From a virus (taxonomy: Duplodnaviria; Heunggongvirae; Uroviricota; Caudoviricetes): a stretch of 64,000 bases of DNA. Positions 3,713-63,797 of this stretch are shown piece by piece. Position 1 is the stretch's first letter. Every line of letters starts with the position of its first letter. The stretch is from IMG/VR virus record IMGVR_UViG_3300034355_001008. One strand, given 5' to 3'. A model generated the notes under the pieces. The model made no database searches. It was not told the origin of the DNA and saw only the letters and a list, made by a program, of their open reading frames with translations. A program made the position numbers and the translations under genes.

Positions 3713-4396
3713 ATGAAAATTTCTCAAGAAACAACTGCAATTCTAAAAAACTTTGCTCATATTAATCAAGGTATTTTCTTTAGAAAAGGTTCTACAGTTT
3801 CAACTATGAGTCCAGGTAAAAATATCTTATCTGTTGCAACTATCTCAGATACAATCCCCCAAGATTTCGGTATTTACGATTTAAATAACTTTTTATCAGT
3901 TGCTTCTTTATTTAAAGAAGGTCCAGAATTAGAATTTGATGATAAACATGTTATTATTAAAGGTCGTGGCGGTCGTAGTAAGATTAAATATCGTGTTGCT
4001 GATCAATCAATGATTGTTGTTCCGCCAGAAAAACTTCCTAATGTTCCAGCTCCAGATGTTAAATTTACATTCTCTAAAGAAGATTTTGAGTGGGTATTAA
4101 AAACTGCAACTGTTCTTGGTGCACCTCATGTTGCCGTTGAATCGGATGGAACTACTGTATCTTTAGTTACTTTTGATGAAGCAAATGATTCAAGTCATGT
4201 TAATTCATTAGAAATGGCTGACGTTGATCCAGAAGGTAAAGTATTTAAATTAGTATTTAAAGCTGAAAATTTAAAAGTTATTCCAGATACGTATTCGGTT
4301 GAGATTTCTAGTAAAGGTATTTCAGCATGGACTTCTACTACAGCTGAATTAAAATATTGGATTACTATTGAAACGAGTTCAACATTTGGTAAATAA
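3713..4396 (+). CDS. 45: sliding clamp (DNA polymerase processivity factor gp45)
   Basis: 227 aa. MKISQETTAILKNFAHINQGIFF…ISDT…FGIYDLNNFLSV aligns with T4 gp45 (MKLSKDTTALLKNFATINSGIML…ISDV…VAIYDLNGFLGI). Confidence 0.9.
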   Translation: MKISQETTAILKNFAHINQGIFFRKGSTVSTMSPGKNILSVATISDTIPQDFGIYDLNNFLSVASLFKEGPELEFDDKHVIIKGRGGRSKIKYRVADQSMIVVPPEKLPNVPAPDVKFTFSKEDFEWVLKTATVLGAPHVAVESDGTTVSLVTFDEANDSSHVNSLEMADVDPEGKVFKLVFKAENLKVIPDTYSVEISSKGISAWTSTTAELKYWITIETSSTFGK

Positions 4397-4922: not shown

Positions 4923-5861
4923 ATGCGTGAACATGTACTTTGGGTTGAAAAATACAGACCAGAAAAAATTGCCGATTGTATTCTTCCTGAATCAATCAAA
5001 TCAACGTTTCAAGAATTTGTTACTCAAAACAAAATCCCTCATTTATTAATTGCAGGTTCAGCTGGCGTTGGTAAAACAACTATTGCAAAAGCCTTATGTA
5101 AAGAAACAGATTGCGACTATATTGTCATTAATGGTTCTGATGAAAATGGTATTGATGTTCTTCGTGGTAAAATTAAAAATTATGCTTCATCAGTTAGTTT
5201 ATCTGGCGGACGTAAAGTAATTATTATTGATGAAGCAGATTATTTAAATGCTAATTCACTACAACCAGCTTTGCGTAATGCAATTGAAGAGTTTTCTCGT
5301 AACTGTTCTTTTATATTTACTTGTAACTATAAAAATCGTATTATTGAACCGCTACATTCAAGATGTTCAGTTGTTGATGTAAAGATTACAAAAGATGATA
5401 AGCAGAAATTAATGGCTCAGTTTTTTAAACGAGTTTGTTGGATTTTAGATGAAGAAAAAGTTGAATATAACAAAGAAGTTGTAGCTCAGGTTATTGCTAA
5501 ATATTATCCAGATAATCGTAGAGTTTTAAATGAACTTCAGCGTTATGCAATGGGTGGTGTTATTGATGCTGGTTTATTATCACAAGTTTCTGATGTAAAT
5601 TTAACACCATTAATCAAAGGTTTAAAAGAAAAATCATTTGCTGATGTTAGAAAGTGGGTTGTTGATAACTTAGATAACGATAGTCAAACAATTTATCGCA
5701 AGATGTATGATTCAATGTATGATATTTTAAAGCCGAATTCAATTCCACAGTTAGTATTATTAATTGGTCGTTATCAATATCAAACAGCTTTTGTTATTGA
5801 TCATGAGATTAATTTAATGGCTTTCTTTACAGAATGTATGGTTGACTTAGAATTCAAATAG
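4923..5861 (+). CDS. 44: clamp loader large subunit gp44 (AAA+ ATPase)
   Basis: KYRP…CILP…IPHLLIAGSAGVGKTTIAKAL Walker A, IIDEADYL Walker B, SRC motif. Overall collinear with T4 gp44. Confidence 0.9.
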   Translation: MREHVLWVEKYRPEKIADCILPESIKSTFQEFVTQNKIPHLLIAGSAGVGKTTIAKALCKETDCDYIVINGSDENGIDVLRGKIKNYASSVSLSGGRKVIIIDEADYLNANSLQPALRNAIEEFSRNCSFIFTCNYKNRIIEPLHSRCSVVDVKITKDDKQKLMAQFFKRVCWILDEEKVEYNKEVVAQVIAKYYPDNRRVLNELQRYAMGGVIDAGLLSQVSDVNLTPLIKGLKEKSFADVRKWVVDNLDNDSQTIYRKMYDSMYDILKPNSIPQLVLLIGRYQYQTAFVIDHEINLMAFFTECMVDLEFK

Positions 5862-5868
5862 GTGATTT

Positions 5869-6252
5869 ATGGATTTGTTTAAAGAAGTTTTACCATCATT
5901 GCTTCAAACTAAAAAATCTATTATTACATCTGATAACGAAAAAGAATATGAACCTTATATTGTAAATCGCGCATTAAGCCAACATAATGATTGTTTGTTA
6001 TATGTAAATGAAATGAATCAGTATTCTGGCTTAGATAAAAAAATGCAATATGATTTTTATTTGTTTATTTTACATAGCAAAAAACGCCCATTTCAAAAAT
6101 GGTATAAAGCAAATGAATCAAAAGACATAGCATTAATTAAAGAGTATTTCGGTTATTCATCAGAAAAAGCCAAAGATGCGTTAAGAATTCTTACGTCTTT
6201 GCAGTTGGAAACTATAAGACAAATATTAGACAAAGGCGGGGTAATTAAATAA
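5869..6252 (+). CDS. 62: clamp loader small subunit gp62-like
   Basis: Called from position immediately downstream of gp44, as in T4. 127 aa with no strong motif. Confidence 0.5.
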   Translation: MDLFKEVLPSLLQTKKSIITSDNEKEYEPYIVNRALSQHNDCLLYVNEMNQYSGLDKKMQYDFYLFILHSKKRPFQKWYKANESKDIALIKEYFGYSSEKAKDALRILTSLQLETIRQILDKGGVIK

Positions 6253-6886
6253 TTTTATTACATTTCCATCCTTTGTGATGCTCTCTTAATTTATTGGAAA
6301 CTTTATACATATTTTGTTCTGAGAGATTATTTTCTTTACAAAATTGTTTTAACCCAGTTATAATAAATTTAGTACCTATTGGATTTATTACTTCGTATTG
6401 CTTTTCTTTTAGCTTTTTTTGTTGAAGTCTATATGTATTAGAATTATATTTTGATTTTAAATCTTCCCACTGTTCTTTTTTAATATTAGAACATTTTAAG
6501 TTTCTATCTTCATTATAAGGAGAATTATTTTTATTCCAATTATATTTTTGTTTTTGTGAAATTTTAATTTTTTGATTTTTTGTAAGAGTTCCGCTATCTA
6601 ACCCATTTTCCTGGATTAGATTAGCCCACTTATCTGATTCAACAATATTGTTTTCCGTAGAAAAATGTAACGCAATTTCTTTTATTGATGTATCATAATA
6701 TAAATCTGAAATCCATAAAGTTTTTACAAATTGTTTGCCGTGTTTTTTAATATGACTTTTCCATTTTATTCCTGATCCCAAATATGTGCGTGGATCTTTA
6801 GTTGTCTTACCGAAATATTTTAATCCGGTAATGGAATGTTGTTTAATATAAAGATATGTTGGTTTGATGGGTGAATATATATTCAT
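6245..6886 (-). CDS. GIY-YIG homing endonuclease (Seg-like) with C-terminal DNA-binding region
   Basis: TYLYIKQHSITGLKYFGKT gives GIY-(10 aa)-YIG spacing, with downstream R, H/K and E…N residues as in I-TevI. Opposite strand to its neighbours. 3' end overlaps gp62 by 8 nt. Paralogue of 62404-63204. Confidence 0.7.
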   Translation of the reverse strand: MNIYSPIKPTYLYIKQHSITGLKYFGKTTKDPRTYLGSGIKWKSHIKKHGKQFVKTLWISDLYYDTSIKEIALHFSTENNIVESDKWANLIQENGLDSGTLTKNQKIKISQKQKYNWNKNNSPYNEDRNLKCSNIKKEQWEDLKSKYNSNTYRLQQKKLKEKQYEVINPIGTKFIITGLKQFCKENNLSEQNMYKVSNKLREHHKGWKCNKII

Positions 6887-36058: not shown

Positions 36059-36481
36059 ATGTGGCTTTACAACAACGAACCATTAACTGCTCCCCCAGAA
36101 AAAGCAATTGGGTTTGTTTATCTAATTACCAACACCCAAAATAACAAAAAATATATTGGTAAAAAAGTTTTCCATTTTAGTAAAACTATCCAGAAGAATT
36201 TAAAAAAGAAAAAAGTAAAGGTTGAATCCGATTGGAAAACATACACCGGATCCAACGACGATTTAAATACTGATATAAAAACAAATAACCCAGAATTAAA
36301 GAAAGAGATATTGGAAATTTGTCATTCCAGATCTCAACTTTCTTACTTGGAAGCCTATTATCAGTTCATCAACAACGTACTAATAGATTCCAGTTATTAC
36401 AATAATTGGATATCAGTGAGAGTAACACGTCGTCACCTAACGAAATATAAAAAAGAACTTGACGAATCGAATTCCATATAG
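36059..36481 (+). CDS. stand-alone GIY-YIG nuclease domain protein (I-TevI catalytic-domain-like, no DNA-binding domain)
   Basis: GFVYLITNTQNNKKYIGKK compares with I-TevI GIYQIKNTLNNKVYVGSA. Downstream H/R and E…N residues present. Only 140 aa. Confidence 0.55.
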   Translation: MWLYNNEPLTAPPEKAIGFVYLITNTQNNKKYIGKKVFHFSKTIQKNLKKKKVKVESDWKTYTGSNDDLNTDIKTNNPELKKEILEICHSRSQLSYLEAYYQFINNVLIDSSYYNNWISVRVTRRHLTKYKKELDESNSI

Positions 36482-36519
36482 TATAATAAAGTAATCCTAA
36501 TCTATACCAATAACTCTAT

Positions 36520-36678
36520 ATGGAAATCTTTCTCCTGATAATTATTATTCTGATCCTTGCTAATAATGAATCTAATGCTCTATCCTTTCTTGTCTCTATT
36601 CTGCTTCTAGGTCTTGCTGCCTATGCAGTTATTTGGATCGGTGCTCTTGCCTTTGTTGTTGCTCTTATCGGAAATTGA
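36520..36678 (+). CDS. possible 52-aa hydrophobic peptide (MEIFLLIIIILILANNESNALSFLVSILLLGLAAYAVIWIGALAFVVALIGN)
   Basis: Short ORF not in the supplied track. CT-rich codon usage atypical of the rest of the window. Low confidence that it is coding. Confidence 0.2.
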   Translation: MEIFLLIIIILILANNESNALSFLVSILLLGLAAYAVIWIGALAFVVALIGN

Positions 36679-36810
36679 ATTCACTCGATTCCTCGGAAAT
36701 TGATTCCTCTGTCTTCGGAGTCTGCCTTTTCTGATAATGATTTAATGGGAATTTCCAAATTATGAGAATTACTAAGTAGTCTAAGTCAAAAAAGACAGTT
36801 TTGCAAGACT

Positions 36811-36890
36811 TCAGATAACCTCAGTAAACTTCAGATAACCTCAGTAAACTTCAGATAACCTCAGTAGACTTCAGATAACCTCAGTAATAC
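36811..36890. repeat. 4 x 20-bp perfect or near-perfect tandem direct repeat ACTTCAGATAACCTCAGTAA
   Basis: Read directly: cttcagataacctcagtaaa occurs four times in tandem, one copy with a single substitution. Each unit is itself two degenerate 10-mers, CYTCAGWWAA. Confidence 0.9.
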
Positions 36891-37011
36891 CTCATAATAT
36901 TCCCCTATTATTCTAATCGAAGATTCTCCGATACTCTAAAGAATTTCCAATACTTACTAAATCACTTTAATAAATTATTCTATTGCGCCTAAGAAAACGC
37001 CAATATTTATA

Positions 37012-37110
37012 TTCGCTTCATAATAGGGCGAACTACCCAAATATATGAATAAATTATAATATTATTCGCTTTATTATAGGGCGATCGCCCCATTTTAGGG
37101 CGAGTTATAG
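37012..37110. repeat. three spaced copies of a TAGGGCGA-containing motif (two 23-bp near-repeats ATTCGCTTYATWATAGGGCGA)
   Basis: attcgcttcataatagggcgaac (37012-37034), attcgctttattatagggcgatc (37064-37086), ttttagggcgagtta (37094-37108). Confidence 0.8.
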
Positions 37111-37134
37111 ATTAATAGAATTACTGTGTAGGCA

Positions 37135-37620
37135 TTACTGCTGATTTAATTTATAGAGAAAGCTTCTTGACAGAGTTTCATCATTATCTTTCATAACTTG
37201 GTTAGTAAGAGTAAATTCAGTAAGATTTGGAGGAATGGTAGATATAGTAACCGAAGATTTATATTGATCAGCACTATCCACTAGAGTAATATCATTATTA
37301 CTACAAGTCCAGAAAGAATTAGCGATAGATTCATTTGGAAGCAACCAGAGATTCCATGGAACAGCATTAAAGGTAGCAGATCCAGAGACAGTTTCCTCTG
37401 GACCCCATAAGGGTTCACTAGAACCAGATATTCCATTAATAGAGCATTGGTAGTAGTAGCCATTATCATTACTAGGGCGAGTAACATCACCAGATCTATA
37501 GACAGTAAGAGTAGAGAACACAGGCGCATTCCAATAGACTTTTACCGTAGTAACATCATCCGGATCAATAAAGCCAGATATTTTAAGAGGACCTTTAAGA
37601 GTAGGAGGATAGATTTGCAT
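37135..37620 (-). CDS. hypothetical protein (Trp/Cys-containing), downstream of the giant repeat protein on - strand
   Basis: 161-aa ORF co-oriented with 37631-40765. Possibly structural. Confidence 0.5.
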   Translation of the reverse strand: MQIYPPTLKGPLKISGFIDPDDVTTVKVYWNAPVFSTLTVYRSGDVTRPSNDNGYYYQCSINGISGSSEPLWGPEETVSGSATFNAVPWNLWLLPNESIANSFWTCSNNDITLVDSADQYKSSVTISTIPPNLTEFTLTNQVMKDNDETLSRSFLYKLNQQ

Positions 37621-37630
37621 TTTAATACCT

Positions 37631-40600
37631 TTATATTGTTATTAGATTATCATTAGGATTATGGGTTATCATTAGAACATTAATACTAATAGAATTAGGA
37701 GAACTCGTCACAAGTGGTAATACATTATAATCAATTACTTGCACTAGATTATCATTAGGATTATGAGTAATCAATAATTTATATAATCTATTAACTTTTT
37801 TAACAAGTAAATCAGCAGATTGTATATTGCACGAATTATTCGATGCAATTTGGCACGCTAATTGAATAGAAGTTGTTATAATACCAAAGGATATTGTATT
37901 AGAACGTAGCGTAGTAGAAGTTAATGATATTTCCGTGAATAGGTTTGAATATACATTAACTTCTACTAGTGCATTAGCCAATAGCACAATGCCTGTATTT
38001 AATTGAGCAGCATTAGATACAATACAAGAATCAATTGAGGCTAATTCAATAGAGGTAAATAGATCTGCTGCAGCGTTTACTTCAACTACGATATTACTAG
38101 ATGCAGTAATATTTGTATCCAGAGTAGTTGCCAGAGCAGATACTTCAGAGAATATTGCAGAATCTACTGGAAGATAGGCAGTTAGATCAGCAAATACTTG
38201 GCAATATGTAATTGCTCGAGCAATTACATATATTTCAGTAAATAGATTTGCTGTGGTATTTGATTCACCATTACCCTGAGCAATTGCATATATTTCAGTA
38301 AATAGATTTGCTGTGGTATTTGATTCACTTATAATAGAGGCAAGTAAAACAACGCCTGTATTTAGCTGAGCAGCATTAGATACAATACAAGAATCTGTTG
38401 CTTGTAGTTCAATAGAAGTTAATAAATTCCCTTGACTGCCTATAGAACCAGATATAACTGCCTGCGTTTCTATACTTGTCGTTAGATCAGCAAGAGTAGA
38501 AAAACTGCCAAGTGCCATGGCAGTAATATTAACTTCAGTAGTTAATGTACCTATATTAGATACAATACAAGAATCTGTTGCTTGTAGTTCAATAGAAGTA
38601 GATAGAGCAGAGTTAGCAGAAGCTACATCAACTATTAATCCAGCTATTTTAATATTTGTAGATAGGTTTGGATATACATTAACTTCTACTAGTGCATTAG
38701 CCAATAGCACAATGCCTGTATTTAATTGAGCAGCATTAGATACAATACAAGAATCTGTTGCTTGTAGTTCAATAGAAGTAGATAGAGCAGAGTTAACAGA
38801 GGCTACATCAACTATTGATCCAGCTATTTTAATATTAGTAGATAGACTTGAATATACGGTGGATATACTTACTGCAGAGGCAAGTAAAACAAGACCTGTA
38901 TTTAATTGCGCTGCATTAGATACAATACAAGAATCAATTGAGGCTAATTCAATATTAGTTAATAGATTACTTGTTGTTGAACATACAGATGATAATACAG
39001 GAGTAGTTAATCGTATATTAGTTGATAGATTACTTACTGAATTAACTCTAGTCAACGCATTTGCAAGTAAACTAACTTGTGTTTGCAATGCTGCAATATT
39101 AGTTACAATACAAGAATCGATTGAGGCTAATTTAATATTGGTTAATAGATTACTTGTTGCAGTTGTTGTAATTACAACATTCGCGCCAGTTATAATATTG
39201 GTTGTTAGCGCAGAAGAAACTGTAGATCTACTTGCCGTAGAACCTAGTAGAACAAGACCTGTATTTAATTGAGCTGCATTAGATACAATACAAGAATCAA
39301 TTGAGGCTAATTTAATATTGGTTAATAGATTACTTGTTGCAGTTGTTGTAATTATAATATTTGCAAAAGTTGTAATATTAGTTGTTAGCGCAGAAGAAAC
39401 TGTAGATCTACTTGCCGTAGAACCAGAAATAATTAACTCAGTTGTTAAATTTGCATTAGAAGATACCACGCATGAATTTATAGAATTTAATCTACTGCGA
39501 GTTCTAAGATTACCTGATGCATTTGATGCGCAAGCTGCTGTAGAATTAAGTAATATTTGCGTGGTTAAATTAGAATTAGCCGTGGCATTACATATTAATG
39601 CCGCAGGAATCATTCTAGATAAGTTTATATCTGAATAAACCGACAATTCAACTGTTGCGTTAAGTAAAACTCTTGTAATTATATTAGGAGTATTAGCTGT
39701 TACAACGGTATATACGGCAGCAGCAGTTTCTATACTTGTTGTTAAAGCTGAATTAGCAGAAACAATTGATAATGTTGAACCTAGTAAAACAATTCCAGTA
39801 TTTAATTGAGCAGCATTAGATACAACACAAGAATCTATTGAACGTAATTCAATAGATGTAATTATATTAGGAGTATTAGCTGTTACAACGGTATATACAG
39901 CAGCAGCAGTTTCTATACTTGTTGTTAAAGCTGAATTAGCAGAAGTTACGCTTAACCCTGTTCCAGAAGCAATTATACTTGTAATTAGAGTTGTTGCATT
40001 AGCTGTAACAACATCATATACGTCAGCGGCAGCTTCTATGCTAGTTGTTATAGCAGAATTAGTTGAAACAATACTTGCCGAAGAACCTAGTAAAACAATT
40101 TCAGTATTTAAATATGCTGCATTAGATACAATACAAGAATCAATTGAGGCTAATTTAATAGACGTGATTAGAGTTGTTGCATTAGCAGTTGCGATATCTA
40201 ATATAGATGCTGCAGCTTCTATGCTAGTTGTTAAAGCAGAATTAGCATTTGCAACAGAATATACTGTAGCATTGGTCTGTATGTTTGTAGTTAGAGCCGA
40301 ATTGGCAGAAGAAATATCTACAGCTAAACCTAGTAAAACAATTCCAGTATTTAACTGAGCTGAATTAGATACAACACAAGAATCTATTGAGGCTAATTCA
40401 ATTGATGTGTGTAAATCTGATGTAGCTGTAACTATATCAATTATAGAAGTATTAAGTTTAACTAGTGTTGCTAATGTAGCGCCACTAGTTGCAAGCGAAG
40501 CAGCTTGAGCAGCTAGATTTATTTGAGTATTAATCGTTGCGGTGCTTAATACTAAAATATCAGTTATTGACGCTGCAATAGTTATACTGGTTGATAATAG

Positions 40601-40765
40601 AGCAGTGGATATAGTTGTTATTGTTGATACTGTAGAATTAAATAAAATTTGAGTTGTAAGATTCGCTGCAACAGAACTTGTTGCATTTAATGCGGTTTCT
40701 AGTTCTATTGGATTAGAACCAGAAGACGATATTGGATTAGAACTTATTGCATAAAATCCTAGCAT
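37631..40765 (-). CDS. 1044-aa tandem-repeat Ser/Thr/Ala/Ile/Asn-rich protein (putative fibrous/beta-solenoid structural protein)
   Basis: Uninterrupted 3.1-kb ORF on the - strand. About 55-60-aa units such as IELASIDSCIVSNAAQLNTGIVLLGS…SANSALTTSIE repeated more than 15 times, with near-identical DNA units (for example 38218-38277 vs 38279-38338). Confidence 0.7.
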   Translation of the reverse strand: MLGFYAISSNPISSSGSNPIELETALNATSSVAANLTTQILFNSTVSTITTISTALLSTSITIAASITDILVLSTATINTQINLAAQAASLATSGATLATLVKLNTSIIDIVTATSDLHTSIELASIDSCVVSNSAQLNTGIVLLGLAVDISSANSALTTNIQTNATVYSVANANSALTTSIEAAASILDIATANATTLITSIKLASIDSCIVSNAAYLNTEIVLLGSSASIVSTNSAITTSIEAAADVYDVVTANATTLITSIIASGTGLSVTSANSALTTSIETAAAVYTVVTANTPNIITSIELRSIDSCVVSNAAQLNTGIVLLGSTLSIVSANSALTTSIETAAAVYTVVTANTPNIITRVLLNATVELSVYSDINLSRMIPAALICNATANSNLTTQILLNSTAACASNASGNLRTRSRLNSINSCVVSSNANLTTELIISGSTASRSTVSSALTTNITTFANIIITTTATSNLLTNIKLASIDSCIVSNAAQLNTGLVLLGSTASRSTVSSALTTNIITGANVVITTTATSNLLTNIKLASIDSCIVTNIAALQTQVSLLANALTRVNSVSNLSTNIRLTTPVLSSVCSTTSNLLTNIELASIDSCIVSNAAQLNTGLVLLASAVSISTVYSSLSTNIKIAGSIVDVASVNSALSTSIELQATDSCIVSNAAQLNTGIVLLANALVEVNVYPNLSTNIKIAGLIVDVASANSALSTSIELQATDSCIVSNIGTLTTEVNITAMALGSFSTLADLTTSIETQAVISGSIGSQGNLLTSIELQATDSCIVSNAAQLNTGVVLLASIISESNTTANLFTEIYAIAQGNGESNTTANLFTEIYVIARAITYCQVFADLTAYLPVDSAIFSEVSALATTLDTNITASSNIVVEVNAAADLFTSIELASIDSCIVSNAAQLNTGIVLLANALVEVNVYSNLFTEISLTSTTLRSNTISFGIITTSIQLACQIASNNSCNIQSADLLVKKVNRLYKLLITHNPNDNLVQVIDYNVLPLVTSSPNSISINVLMITHNPNDNLITI

Positions 40766-40881
40766 AATCTCTCTATTTAATTCTTAGATTAGTAATCAAG
40801 TATTTATTAAATGTAATAAATAGTTTATATTATATTTAGGATTGTTCAAGGAACTGGTATGGATTTATTAGGAGTAGTTGT

Positions 40882-61905: not shown

Positions 61906-62352
61906 TTAGTTATCCAGCTGGATAGATAAAGCAGATGCCGAGAATGTCGGAGCAGCGTCACCATCATTTACAGTCTTTTGTGTTGTTAAATTTCCATAAA
62001 ATAATAGATTTCCGCCAGTAGCAGCATCATACATTCCAAATGAAGTAATAACTCCCCAATTTCCTCCAGTTGGAACTGGAAACGTAATTGCATTAATGTT
62101 ATATGTTGTTCCAGACGTACCAGAACTTGCTGAAGTTGAGCTAGAACTATCAGTTCCGGACCAGTTTAATAGAGATGAAGCAATACGCACTCTAGAATAA
62201 CCTCCACCAGAAACTTCAACTTGTCCAGTATTTGCATCATTTGAACTTGTAGTTAATAATCCAATCCAGGTATTAGCTGGTGCTGTATATGCTTGTTGTC
62301 TAAAAATGTAATCAATTAATTTATTCTCAAGATAATTCGACATTGCGCTCAT
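61906..62352 (-). CDS. hypothetical Ser/Thr/Gly-rich protein (possibly structural)
   Basis: 148-aa ORF with a TATAAATA late box (- strand, 62364-62371) and GGAGTT RBS just upstream. Confidence 0.5.
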   Translation of the reverse strand: MSAMSNYLENKLIDYIFRQQAYTAPANTWIGLLTTSSNDANTGQVEVSGGGYSRVRIASSLLNWSGTDSSSSTSASSGTSGTTYNINAITFPVPTGGNWGVITSFGMYDAATGGNLLFYGNLTTQKTVNDGDAAPTFSASALSIQLDN

Positions 62353-62363
62353 GTATAACTCCT

Positions 62364-62371
62364 TATTTATA
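62364..62371 (-). promoter_or_regulatory. T4 late-promoter-like TATAAATA (- strand) upstream of 61906-62352
   Basis: tatttata on the + strand equals TATAAATA on the - strand, 12 nt upstream of the start codon. Confidence 0.35.
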
Positions 62372-62403
62372 TATTATTTAAAGTATTTAGTATTTAGTAT
62401 TTA

Positions 62404-63204
62404 TTACTTATGTTTAAGCGATTCTAAATATTCATCTGATTTCATATACGCACCTTTTGGTAATTTTAATCCGTTAGCTTTGTATAATTGTTTTATTTCT
62501 TGATAAATGGGTCTAGCTGCTTTTGATTTTTGAAATGTACCATGTAATCCTGGATTATTATTTACAAAAGCATTTTTTCCATTTTCAATTTGTTTATAAA
62601 CTGGGTTTGTATCCCCTAAGAAAAAATGCGTTCCATCTTTTATTTTTGCTTTAGATGGATGATTATCATTTAAAAAATTATGCGTGCCGTTTTTAAGTCT
62701 TTTTTGTGCTAATTCTCGCTGAAATTCCCCGCCAATCCAATGATGCGTTCTATCTTTAAGCCTTTTTTGTTGAATTTTTCTTTGAAATTCTCCACCAATC
62801 CAATGATGTGTTCCATCATTAACTCTTTTTTGTTGTATTTTTTTCTGTTGTTCAGAAGTTGTTCCGCCATCCAATCCATTTTCTAATTTTAAATTAGCCC
62901 ATTCTTTAGATTTAACTATATTATATTTTTCTGATAAATTTATTGCTGTAGCAACTAATATATTAATATCATTAAATAATTCGCACCATATTGTATCAAC
63001 ATCTCTGCCATGTTTTTTTAAATGGGATAACCAATAATCTCCAGATCCGTTATATTTAATTGGATTTTTACAATTAGTTTTACACAAATATTTTAAACCT
63101 GTTAATTTATGTTGTTTTATCATTAAATATGTTGGTTTAAAATTTTTTATTTGTTGTTCTGTTATATAAATATTTTCGCTAGACATTATTCCTCCATATT
63201 TCAT
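62404..63204 (-). CDS. GIY-YIG homing endonuclease (Seg-like) with tandem NUMOD-like DNA-binding repeats
   Basis: PTYLMIKQHKLTGLKYLCKT…YNGSG…HLKKHG is paralogous to 6245-6886. C-terminal KKIQQKRVNDGTHHWIGGEFQR appears twice, with further degenerate THNF/THFF copies. Confidence 0.7.
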   Translation of the reverse strand: MKYGGIMSSENIYITEQQIKNFKPTYLMIKQHKLTGLKYLCKTNCKNPIKYNGSGDYWLSHLKKHGRDVDTIWCELFNDINILVATAINLSEKYNIVKSKEWANLKLENGLDGGTTSEQQKKIQQKRVNDGTHHWIGGEFQRKIQQKRLKDRTHHWIGGEFQRELAQKRLKNGTHNFLNDNHPSKAKIKDGTHFFLGDTNPVYKQIENGKNAFVNNNPGLHGTFQKSKAARPIYQEIKQLYKANGLKLPKGAYMKSDEYLESLKHK

Positions 63205-63254
63205 AATGTTTAGTGCTGGTGGGATGTAGGAGTCCGCGACCAGCTTTTTTTTTG

Positions 63255-63797
63255 TTAAGTTGCTTTATTTACGGCAATAGAATTGCCTGCAGCAATGTCA
63301 AGTATATTAAGTCTGCCGTATGGCCATGGAGCGGTAACGGTTGTATAATTTGTATTAGAATTTGCTGTTGTTACTGCTAAAGTTGCAACATTAATCCAAT
63401 TTGTTTGATTAGTTGAAACTTGAATTACTACATTTGAACTTCCGCCTGTAGAAAATGCTTGTAATATCGCACTTGGGTAATTTGTAAAGCTAAATGTAAA
63501 TGTATCTTGCGGTCCAGTTAATCCTGATCCATAATTTGGAGTTTTAGCTGCAACTCCAGTATTAGCATATTGTGGATTTGAGAAATCAATAACAGCTGTA
63601 TTTCCTGATACAGAAACAACTCTTGATGCGTATCTTGCATCGTTGTTTGTAAAATACAATGTTAAATCATTGTTGGCAAGTAAATATGGGTTTGAGTCGA
63701 ATACAATCGATGTATTACTATAAATGTATACACCTTTTACAACTCTTGTTAATTCAGTAATCATCGTTATTATTCCTAAATATGAGGTAATTTTCAT
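63255..63797 (-). CDS. hypothetical Thr/Asn/Ser-rich protein (possibly structural)
   Basis: 180-aa ORF. Confidence 0.45.
   Translation of the reverse strand: MKITSYLGIITMITELTRVVKGVYIYSNTSIVFDSNPYLLANNDLTLYFTNNDARYASRVVSVSGNTAVIDFSNPQYANTGVAAKTPNYGSGLTGPQDTFTFSFTNYPSAILQAFSTGGSSNVVIQVSTNQTNWINVATLAVTTANSNTNYTTVTAPWPYGRLNILDIAAGNSIAVNKAT

Follow-up and report, generated by a model that had tools for sequence, protein, structure and literature searches.

A long 20-residue-repeat protein and its Gp77-like partner as a putative collar-anchored fiber module of an uncultured T4-like phage

Here, we describe a pair of proteins encoded in IMG/VR virus record IMGVR_UViG_3300034355_001008, of which a stretch of 64,000 nucleotides (hereafter, the window) was analyzed and which, judged by its gene content, is a T4-like phage of the Caudoviricetes. 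One member is a 1044-residue protein built of 20-residue units; the other is a 161-residue protein with a predicted immunoglobulin (Ig)-like domain resembling Gp77, the fiber-tail adaptor of podophage GP4, and the two genes lie side by side on the minus strand. That the two proteins form a functional pair is, in our assessment, highly probable, and a fiber anchored at the collar is their likely setting. With confidence evenly poised, we propose as a composite that the 1044-residue protein is the long repetitive backbone of a fiber held through the 161-residue protein, and probably its ‘rope’. The further step, in which this rope is threaded by Gp80-like ‘beads’, is advanced more tentatively, at a little below even confidence.

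The minus-strand open reading frame (ORF) at 37631–40765 is present as the original prediction had reported it, and that it is a real protein gene is virtually certain. At the base composition of the window, 1044 consecutive codons free of stops would arise by chance with P ~10^-37.5, and the next longest open stretch on the minus strand spans 286 codons. Among the internal paralogous repeats, mismatches fell at 14.4%, 6.2% and 16.8% in codon positions 1, 2 and 3, respectively (p = 3e-13), the second position being conserved and the first free, a pattern expected of substitutions inside the A/T/S and I/V/L classes. Comparison of the N-terminal 130 codons with those of L009, L007 and L001, three related loci, gave a ratio of nonsynonymous to synonymous substitution rates (dN/dS) of 0.40–0.42, and a GAGAG Shine–Dalgarno-like motif lies 5′ of the ATG. 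Gene callers also predicted the ORF on public contigs obtained independently; one separate ENA assembly carries the 3135-bp gene without a single base difference, and in another, the third, the predicted product again has 1044 residues. The guanine–cytosine (GC) skew of the plus strand is positive throughout the gene because Ser, Thr and Ala codons are C-rich at their second position. Coding on the plus strand, which the original prediction had kept in view, finds no support, as the plus-strand frames are broken by stops. Strand isolation, also predicted, was confirmed: once shadow ORFs (short ORFs inside plus-strand genes) were left out, the 1044- and 161-residue ORFs were the only minus-strand ORFs of at least 100 residues between ~7 kb and 61.9 kb.

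Seven residue types (Ser, Thr, Ala, Leu, Ile, Asn and Val) make up 81% of the 1044-residue protein, Asp, Glu, Lys and Arg together account for 7.5%, and there is no Trp. Residue-identity autocorrelation revealed a basic period of 20 residues, with values of 0.22, 0.19 and 0.27 at lags 20, 40 and 60 over a background of ~0.09 and satellites at lags 21, 41 and 61. An iterated unit profile mapped 45 units of ~20 residues, leaving, beside the units and the non-repeat ends, two irregular stretches of ~25 residues. Three unit types alternate to form a super-repeat of 60–61 residues, and the repeat of ~57 residues first described thus gives way to a 20-residue period and this higher-order unit. The super-repeat marker ‘SIDSC[IV]VSNAAQLNTG[IV]VLL’ occurs in ten copies, and the spacings of its ‘DSC’ motif (n = 10) are 60, 61, 81, 102, 121 or 179 residues. 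At the DNA level, Tandem Repeats Finder (TRF) identified arrays with periods of 180 and 306 nt. The near-perfect DNA repeat noted earlier at ~38218–38338 is real (38219–38268 versus 38279–38328, with one mismatch in 50), its offset being 60 nt and not 61. Longer internal repeats measure 88 bp (98.9%), 94 bp (95.7%) and 147 bp (93.2%), and every listed internal repeat offset is a multiple of three.

Both non-repeat ends of the protein are conserved. The N-terminal motif MLGF[YFR]x[IL][SG][ST]x[PA][IL]S[ST]xG was found in all complete family members examined, and a four-sequence alignment showed M1, L2, G3, F4, S8, S9, P11, S13, S14 and G16 to be invariant. The C-terminal tail reads ‘...ANNSCNI..DLL’, followed by ~3 short strand motifs (LLITHNPNDNLVQV, VLPLVTSSPNSISINV and LMITHNPNDNLITI). 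This type of tail is kept across the family, including the 232-residue protein P0055, and GC-rich relatives carry analogous ‘RVxVP’ motifs in their C-terminal tails.

A full-length AlphaFold2 run on the 1044-residue protein, based on a 3-sequence alignment, returned an all-beta monomer with a mean predicted local distance difference test (pLDDT) score of 42, in which no residue reached 90 and eight residues scored 70–90. At this low confidence, the model placed ~1–2 strands in each 20-residue unit and just two short helices. Its best-predicted stretch (residues 605–736) held approximately one long strand per unit, more in keeping with hairpins or a meander than with coils. The β-solenoid of the original prediction therefore gains no support from the model, and the genomic context favors an extended backbone in need of partners; the broader expectation of a fibrous protein is supported, here as a probable virion component.

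Direct searches with the repeat protein were largely uninformative. Megablast and tblastn searches of 50,697 phage records with the gene returned no match, to which the BLAST low-complexity filter may contribute, and nothing was found among Pfam, PHROG or PDB sequences. A word-indexed search of 5.8 billion proteins yielded only nine weak matches with the 1044-residue query and missed true orthologs, and a query with the N terminus alone recovered one fragment. The exact 1044-residue sequence was absent from this word-indexed collection, though the gene is called on public contigs; such indexes probably under-report low-complexity repeat proteins of this type.

The 161-residue partner proved more tractable. 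Its gene shows dN/dS values of 0.28–0.45 against orthologs, and AlphaFold2 modeled it with a pLDDT of 87.7 as two β domains. The protein matches Pfam PF23148 (Gp77, ‘podophage GP4 fiber-tail adaptor’) at 19.6 bits (E 1.3e-3), below the 27-bit gathering score; of 17 members of its family, 13 reach E < 0.01 with PF23148, 4.9e-6 being the best value, and precomputed PF23148 matches exist for several relatives. In the predicted model, it adopts the Ig-like fold of gp77 (PDB 8JOU). In the PDB, Foldseek ranked collar proteins highest for the model, from phages Milano and 7-7-1, at E ~1e-2 only. The family profile found no PDB sequence at E <=10, and tblastn with the 161-residue protein gave no match in the 50,697 phage records. 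PHROG 20658 covers residues 38–74 (E 2.4e-7), and this family and PHROG 30112 were its only PHROG matches; it did not match the tail-fiber-assembly (Tfa) PHROGs, whereas the 146- and 160-residue proteins of the window do. For the N-terminal domain, a Foldseek search of BFVD returned short matches (56–70 columns, 17–30% identity) to this module within phage proteins of the tail-fiber, baseplate and pectate-lyase types, and the module ‘GD..P..DNGYYYQC..G.SG..EP.W’ recurs within tail-fiber and baseplate proteins. The best BFVD match of the 161-residue protein is annotated ‘minor tail protein’.

Homologs of the partner with 44–52% identity were also observed at four loci with small upstream genes (L025 at 5230–6489, L022, L028 and L029). 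In loci of this type, a 117-residue upstream protein ends in a ‘YILIK....CLIK’ tail motif like that of the repeat family and is possibly a mini-rope, and a 123-residue upstream protein belongs to ‘virion structural protein’ PHROG 3758. Such loci could represent the fiber system in compact form. The 123-residue protein was also considered as a Gp80 and was undetectable as such.

Orthologs of the repeat protein were reached through this conserved neighbor. Homologs of the 161-residue protein numbered 39 at 48–100% identity, and 20 IMG/VR loci were identified. Wherever the partner was at least 54% identical and enough upstream DNA was available, a repeat protein lay directly upstream, in every case; at L011, L013, L014-17 and L020, the check was limited to this adjacency. 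These repeat proteins share the N terminus MLGF[YF]x[IL][SG]SxP[IL]SS.G and the ‘...LI....N/D..LI’ strand motifs at the C terminus, and orthologs with both termini conserved occur in >8 contigs. The loci L001, L007 and L009 present the same gene order as the window: a SegE-like GIY-YIG gene, the inverted partner and repeat genes and a divergent fiber gene, with the ribonucleotide reductase (RNR) genes beyond. L003, identical to the window, has the pair and the fiber gene. Altogether, the pair recurs in eight or more diverged relatives, all T4-like and uncultured. Since the pair keeps its place and orientation in relatives whose 161-residue proteins are only 54–74% identical, and since its GC content (0.32–0.34) equals that of its neighbors, we conclude from these comparisons that the inverted pair is ancestral to the lineage. 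The recent acquisition of a cassette that the original prediction had read from the inversion was thus not borne out, whereas its tie between the repeat gene and the 161-residue gene was, the pair being conserved in relatives and fused in other phages.

The repeat protein varies in length between lineages. At the syntenic loci, the orthologs measure 832, 846, 903, 1044, 1154, 1165, 1230/1231 and 1304 residues, and P0055 has both family ends and only ~7 units in 232 residues; judged from these sequences, the differences are in whole units. The length variability anticipated in the original prediction thus holds between lineages (832–1304 residues, plus P0055) and was not apparent within the population, where an independent assembly matched at every base. 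In L010, a ~90%-identical strain, there were no indels across the last ~260 residues of the repeat array. The assemblies compared gave no sign of within-population hypervariability, a comparison in which short-read assembly might conceal such variants. The L010 protein has one extra 20-residue ‘NEVEILIHVNHNDIIITNPD’ motif in its C-terminal tail (versus window 37631–37700); variation in copy number is therefore not confined to the main array but extends to the tail proposed to bind the collar.

Beyond these orthologs, an exhaustive HMMER search of 1.84 billion representative proteins identified 128 proteins at E <=1e-3, 12 at <=1e-10 and none at <=1e-30; together with the relatives found through the neighboring gene, these are the homologs that the original prediction had called for seeking. 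Nearly all of the 128 are modular and most are GC-rich, with an N-terminal domain, 5–16 ‘A.LTT.I.LAA’ units of 20–21-residue period and a short C-terminal tail of ‘RVxVP’-type strands. The consensus of 172 GC-rich units, ATAALTTQIRLAAAAAA, matches the consensus of the window protein, ANLTTSIELAASISSIVTA, and matches 35 of its units. In two of these relatives, a Gp77 domain comes immediately after the repeats (P0091, residues 540–619, 48 bits; P0122, residues 563–664, 36 bits), and the domain of P0091 matches 8jou_D directly (E 5e-5). P0054 shows the same order at 23 bits (residues 615–697), below the 27-bit cut-off, and in P0078, P0121, P0129 and P0142 the repeats precede a domain of the 161-residue family. 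Because the repeats come before the Gp77-like domain in these seven fusions, the order of the window genes, from repeat to adaptor, is collinear with the order of the fused domains. In P0005, which begins with a module related to the N-terminal domain of the 161-residue protein, a gp6-like head-tail connector domain comes after the repeats.

A third component could be supplied by a 148-residue gene product of the window, a homolog of the GP4 Fiber-I protein gp80. It matches PF23140 over profile positions 1–128 of 128 (E 1.2e-40; 139.2 bits, cut-off 27) and PDB 8jou_a over residues 1–143 (phmmer, E 6.5e-14), and the 1044-residue protein is the sole repetitive, rope-like candidate seen in the window. 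A 180-residue ORF near the Gp80-like gene was considered as an alternative rope and rejected, as it has no repeats. Gp80 and a repeat protein co-occur in the window and in four other loci. In L055, Gp80 (E 2e-41) precedes a 305-residue repeat protein directly followed by a 95-residue Gp77 (E 6.8e-17), and in L032, Gp80 (E 9e-50) precedes a 309-residue repeat protein directly followed by a 101-residue Gp77-like gene, whose match (E 7.8e-5) is below the Pfam cut-off. L100 has a 585-residue protein of β-helix plus repeats, a 145-residue gene without a Pfam match and then Gp80. The window protein aligned with the repeat proteins of L055, L032 and L100 at 45, 36 and 43 bits, respectively. The fourth locus, L002 (Logan SRR25160627, a 66-kb contig), belongs to a different T4-like phage and encodes a Gp80 homolog at 3804–4241 (Pfam E 1.6e-46) that is 48.6% identical to the 148-residue protein. 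Its 1071-residue protein with the 20-residue repeat (P0002, 10001–13216) is encoded directly upstream of the T4 gp13 and gp14 neck genes, the position that wac occupies in T4, and no Gp77-like gene adjoins it. The lists of IMG/VR contigs with the cassette and with Gp80 did not overlap, the contigs being short and the genes 21 kb apart.

Neck fibers of other phages provide the template for the proposed composite. GP4 Fiber I shares its architecture with the whiskers of Bas63 and Sf14, with an Ig-like collar ring at the connector; GP4 encodes its rope as a protein of its own, whereas in Bas63 the collar protein is extended N-terminally to form it (PMC12609058). Dimers of Fiber-I or whisker protein enclose the rope ‘like beads on a string’, and the rope lies in their grooves, where it completes incomplete sandwiches, and rope length sets the number of dimers, five on the longer GP4 rope and two in Bas63 (PMC12609058). 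By homology, the 161-residue subunits would form or join a collar at the neck, with which the C-terminal tail of the repeat protein would interlock through its ~3 strand motifs. This polarity is proposed because the repeats precede the Gp77-like domain in the fusions and because the Bas63 rope is the N-terminal extension of its collar protein; we further speculate that the ~3 strand motifs of the tail might correspond to the gp77 chains of 8JOU, of which the entry lists three. The ~45-unit array would then run as an extended, strand-prone chain through the grooves of Gp80-like subunits, completing their incomplete β-sandwiches. The duplications and the range of lengths are observed; fiber length itself would be set by the number of units and would change by in-frame duplications of 20 residues (60 nt). 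Fully extended, the ~940 repeat residues would reach up to ~300 nm (arithmetic, at ~0.33 nm per residue). By analogy, such a fiber might serve reversible contact with the host surface or the functions of neck whiskers. A rope would explain the lack of a globular domain, the very low charge, the strand period of 20 residues, the unconfident all-beta monomer model and the duplication of whole units.

Carried to its full extent, this proposal describes a giant ‘rope and ruler’, in which a foldless chain of 45 to >60 units templates dozens of Gp80-like subunits into a neck fiber of >100 nm in T4-like phages, whose length is tuned by in-frame gain or loss of units, and in which ‘A.LTT.I.LAA’ is a general rope module of GP4/Bas63-type fibers. 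We regard this extended version as rather doubtful.

Several observations weigh against the composite. The Gp80-like gene lies 21 kb from the repeat and partner cassette in the window, and only 3 of 80 IMG/VR loci with Gp80 have a 20-residue-repeat protein within 3 kb. The match of the window partner to PF23148 is below the Pfam threshold and Ig folds are common, which is a weak point of the adaptor assignment. Many distant repeat relatives carry LamG, β-helix or BNR-like N-terminal domains, and P0001 has two non-repeat stretches of ~170–185 residues, probably globular inserts, between its repeat runs. The low AlphaFold2 confidence could merely reflect the 3-sequence alignment, and both the neck location and the threading of beads are reached by inference only. 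The likeness to the GP4 rope is also slight. In the GP4-like Ralstonia phage NK-7 (L030), a 325-residue gene at 5430–6407, between the equivalents of gp80 and gp78, is the positional candidate for that rope; its product is Gly/Ala-rich, with a weak 10/20-residue period (‘..I.L.G.G.’), a top autocorrelation at lag 20 and an N terminus, MRYALNVAPING, loosely like MLGFYAISSNPISS. Compared with the window protein, it gave a phmmer E of 0.37 (−2.6 bits) and no unit-profile match. It is absent from the PDB sequences, in which neighboring GP4 proteins are present (8jov and 8h89), none of them rope-like.

Some of these points would be accommodated by a self-standing fiber, in which the 20-residue repeats fold on their own, probably as a homo-oligomer such as a trimeric β shaft, and are anchored by the 161-residue adaptor without Gp80 beads, the Gp80-like gene serving a separate structure. 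We consider this unlikely, though it fares best among the alternatives. The link to the adaptor is equally strong here as in the composite, and the distance of 21 kb to the Gp80-like gene is in its favor. Globular domains typical of fiber tips, namely the probable inserts of P0001 and the LamG_3 (11 of 71 repeat relatives scanned against Pfam), β-helix and BNR-like N-terminal domains, would find a natural place; the AlphaFold2 strands are regularly spaced at 20 residues, and obligate oligomeric fibers also predict poorly as monomers. In Zheng et al. 2023, GP4 fiber II is reported to sit on the gp77 ring as well. Against a self-standing shaft, no known fiber-shaft signature and no match to any solved fiber were found, and a shaft exposed to solvent would be expected to carry more charged residues. 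Moreover, Gp80, repeat protein and Gp77 stand together in L055 and L032, and the rope-collar fusion of Bas63 shares its domain order with the fusions found here.

Less probable still is a further tail fiber at the baseplate, with the 161-residue protein as its assembly chaperone or distal tip. The cassette abuts six fiber-like genes, several of which are followed by small partner genes (117, 146, 116 and 160 residues), and the N-terminal module of the 161-residue protein and its best BFVD match lead to tail-fiber, baseplate and ‘minor tail’ proteins. However, tail-fiber-assembly PHROGs are matched by the window proteins of 146 and 160 residues, which are genuine Tfa-type chaperones, and not by the 161-residue protein; the closest fold to the 161-residue protein is the GP4 fiber-tail adaptor, and fusion as a conserved C-terminal Ig domain in at least seven proteins would be unusual for a chaperone. 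The head-tail connector domain of P0005 and the place of the L002 gene upstream of neck genes point to the neck instead. A monomeric β-solenoid adhesin, its repeats coiling as a single chain that binds the host surface, is very improbable: its repetitiveness, its wealth of Ser, Thr, Ala, Ile and Asn and the regular strand prediction would suit this reading, but AlphaFold2 gave no confident solenoid (a test weakened by the 3-sequence alignment), the single long strand per unit in residues 605–736 suggests another arrangement, and there was no match to a solenoid family in Pfam or the PDB. Finally, a chance or ‘shadow’ ORF antisense to a repetitive region, for which one might cite the roughly self-complementary S/T/A/I/N/V codon set, the plus-strand ORFs of 70–137 residues and the positive skew, is refuted by the coding tests, given the improbable stop-free run, the plus-strand frames interrupted by stops, the codon-position pattern, the in-frame offsets, the dN/dS of ~0.4, the orthologs with conserved ends and a skew accounted for by C-rich second codon positions.

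The assignment of the window to a T4-like phage reflects genes for a gp43-type DNA polymerase, UvsX, a gp41-type helicase, a gp44-type clamp loader, a primase and both RNR subunits. The nearest cultured phages by DNA polymerase, at ~45% identity, are Synechococcus myophages. To the right of the repeat gene, a plus-strand fiber locus (40882–61539) opens with an 875-residue fiber gene with a T7-like N terminus and YadA-head repeats. It also encodes two giant proteins of 1772 and 1931 residues with 6–8 LamG_3 domains, each followed by a Tfa-type chaperone, as well as a 625-residue protein, YadA-head-repeat proteins of 517 and 587 residues and paired ‘tail fiber’ proteins of 117 and 116 residues; small ‘tail fiber’ proteins and Tfa-type chaperones are interspersed along it. 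The coordinates of the features discussed are collected in the table below.

Table. Features of the repeat-protein system in the window
Feature	Position	Strand	Basis or remark
1044-residue repeat-protein gene	37631–40765	−	ATG start; proposed backbone/‘rope’ of collar-anchored fiber
N-terminal non-repeat peptide, residues 1–33 (MLGFYAISSNPISSSG...)	40667–40765	−	Motif common to complete family members
~45-unit array, residues 34–977, consensus ~A-N-L-T-T-S-I-E-L-A-A-S-I-S-S-I-V-T-A	37835–40666	−	Autocorrelation, unit map, TRF
C-terminal tail, residues 978–1044 + stop	37631–37834	−	Proposed collar-interlocking end
161-residue partner gene, proposed collar/fiber-adaptor subunit	37135–37620	−	10 nt downstream of repeat gene
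N-terminal small β domain of partner, residues 1–86, motif GD..RP..DNGYYYQC..NG.SG..EP.W	37363–37620	−	PHROG 20658
C-terminal Ig-like domain of partner, residues 87–161, Gp77-like	37138–37362	−	
Divergent intergenic region, repeat gene/875-residue fiber gene	40766–40881	.	AATAAATA at 40801–40808 (−)
148-residue homolog of GP4 Fiber-I protein gp80, proposed ‘bead’	61906–62352	−	Pfam PF23140

The motif AATAAATA in the divergent intergenic region matches 7 of 8 positions of the T4 late promoter TATAAATA and lies 43 nt upstream of the repeat-gene ATG, and a mirrored copy of it lies 67 nt upstream of the 875-residue fiber gene. This 7/8 match weakly suggests late timing for the repeat gene; the exact TATAAATA octamer is not enriched in the window, and 7/8 matches are common in AT-rich DNA. 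An exact TATAAATA precedes the Gp80-like gene by 19 nt. A scan for sigma-70 promoters and terminators found sites that were fewer than, or no more than, those in shuffled sequences, with no convincing terminator after the 161-residue gene. The Gp80-like gene belongs to a second minus-strand block (61906–63797) that also encodes a 266-residue protein and the 180-residue unknown protein, with exact TATAAATA octamers just upstream of the first and third genes of the block; the 266-residue protein has repeated ‘THHWIGGEFQRK’ motifs and matches an intron-like DNA endonuclease family (PHROG 12324).

To the left of the cassette lies a non-coding island (36482–37134). It contains four tandem 20-nt units (ACTTCAGATAACCTCAGTAA, 36808–36887), each built from 10-nt half-units, and two 37-nt elements (37003–39 and 37056–92) with a TTCGC...GCGAA hairpin and an overlapping palindrome at 37053–37116. 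Rfam searches of the island returned only sub-threshold chance matches. A comparable gap of 0.4–0.8 kb follows the 161-residue gene in L004, L007 and L009. The cassette is separated from the RNR genes by a plus-strand gene for a GIY-YIG homing endonuclease of the SegE type (36059–36481, Pfam E 3.6e-34), and a gene of this type is kept at that place in L001, L004, L007 and L009. The gene for the RNR large subunit is split by an intein (PF14890) in L009 and in ENA contigs, and the window RNR is without an intein.

The neck-fiber architecture of the GP4/Bas63 type was described only in 2023–2025, with cryo-electron microscopy sightings of collar ‘beads on a rope’ fibers in podophage GP4 and in the felixounaviruses Bas63 and Sf14. 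The window would hold a much enlarged and split version in a T4-like lineage. If the composite is correct, an enlarged fiber system of this type exists in uncultured T4-like phages, and a widespread, unannotated 20-residue repeat without an entry in Pfam, PHROG or the PDB would gain a concrete role. It would also offer a natural example of a repeat-number ‘ruler’ for fiber length, as well as a rule for annotating large ORFs of this type, which are currently ‘hypothetical’: a neck fiber would be indicated where a repeat-protein gene precedes a Gp77-like one and a Gp80-like gene stands at another place in the genome. Even as a self-standing fiber on a Gp77-like adaptor, the pair would be a new conserved host-interaction module of its lineage.

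Among known systems, the Fiber I complex of GP4 (gp80 dimers, rope and gp77; PDB 8JOU) is like the proposed fiber in having a separate, extended rope protein. The repeat gene of the window adjoins its adaptor gene, and L055 and L032 hold all three GP4-type genes within ~3 kb, whereas the three genes of the window are spread over 25 kb. GP4 is a podophage and the window a T4-like myophage; the GP4 rope holds five dimers, whereas the window protein has 1044 residues and ~45 units, and the window adaptor has an extra N-terminal domain of 86 residues. Bas63 and Sf14 are Felixounavirus myophages with contractile tails; their connector bears an Ig-like collar ring, in Bas63 the apparent counterpart of the ring that gp77 forms around the head-tail connector of GP4, and the rope passes through whisker dimers. 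By analogy, the rope-collar polypeptide of Bas63, with its N-terminal rope, has the domain order of the seven fusions of repeats to a Gp77-like domain, although its rope is a short extension holding two dimers, in contrast to the separate protein with ~940 repeat residues in the window.

T4 fibritin (wac), the long neck fiber of a T4-like phage, is a possible functional analog, and the 20-residue-repeat protein of L002 occupies the wac position upstream of gp13/gp14. Fibritin, however, is a trimeric α-helical coiled coil with a C-terminal foldon, whereas the window repeat protein is predicted to be all-beta, has a period of 20 rather than heptads, lacks a Pfam match and is accompanied by a separate Ig-like adaptor. 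Its identification as a fibritin was rejected on the absence of a coiled coil, of heptads and of a Pfam or PHROG match. The modular ‘A.LTT.I.LAA’ proteins (128 clusters) are like the window family in unit, period, strand tail and Gp77-like association. These are mostly GC-rich proteins of 400–1500 residues with 5–16 units behind a globular N-terminal domain, whereas in the window family the N terminus is just a peptide of 33 residues and the units can number 45 or more.

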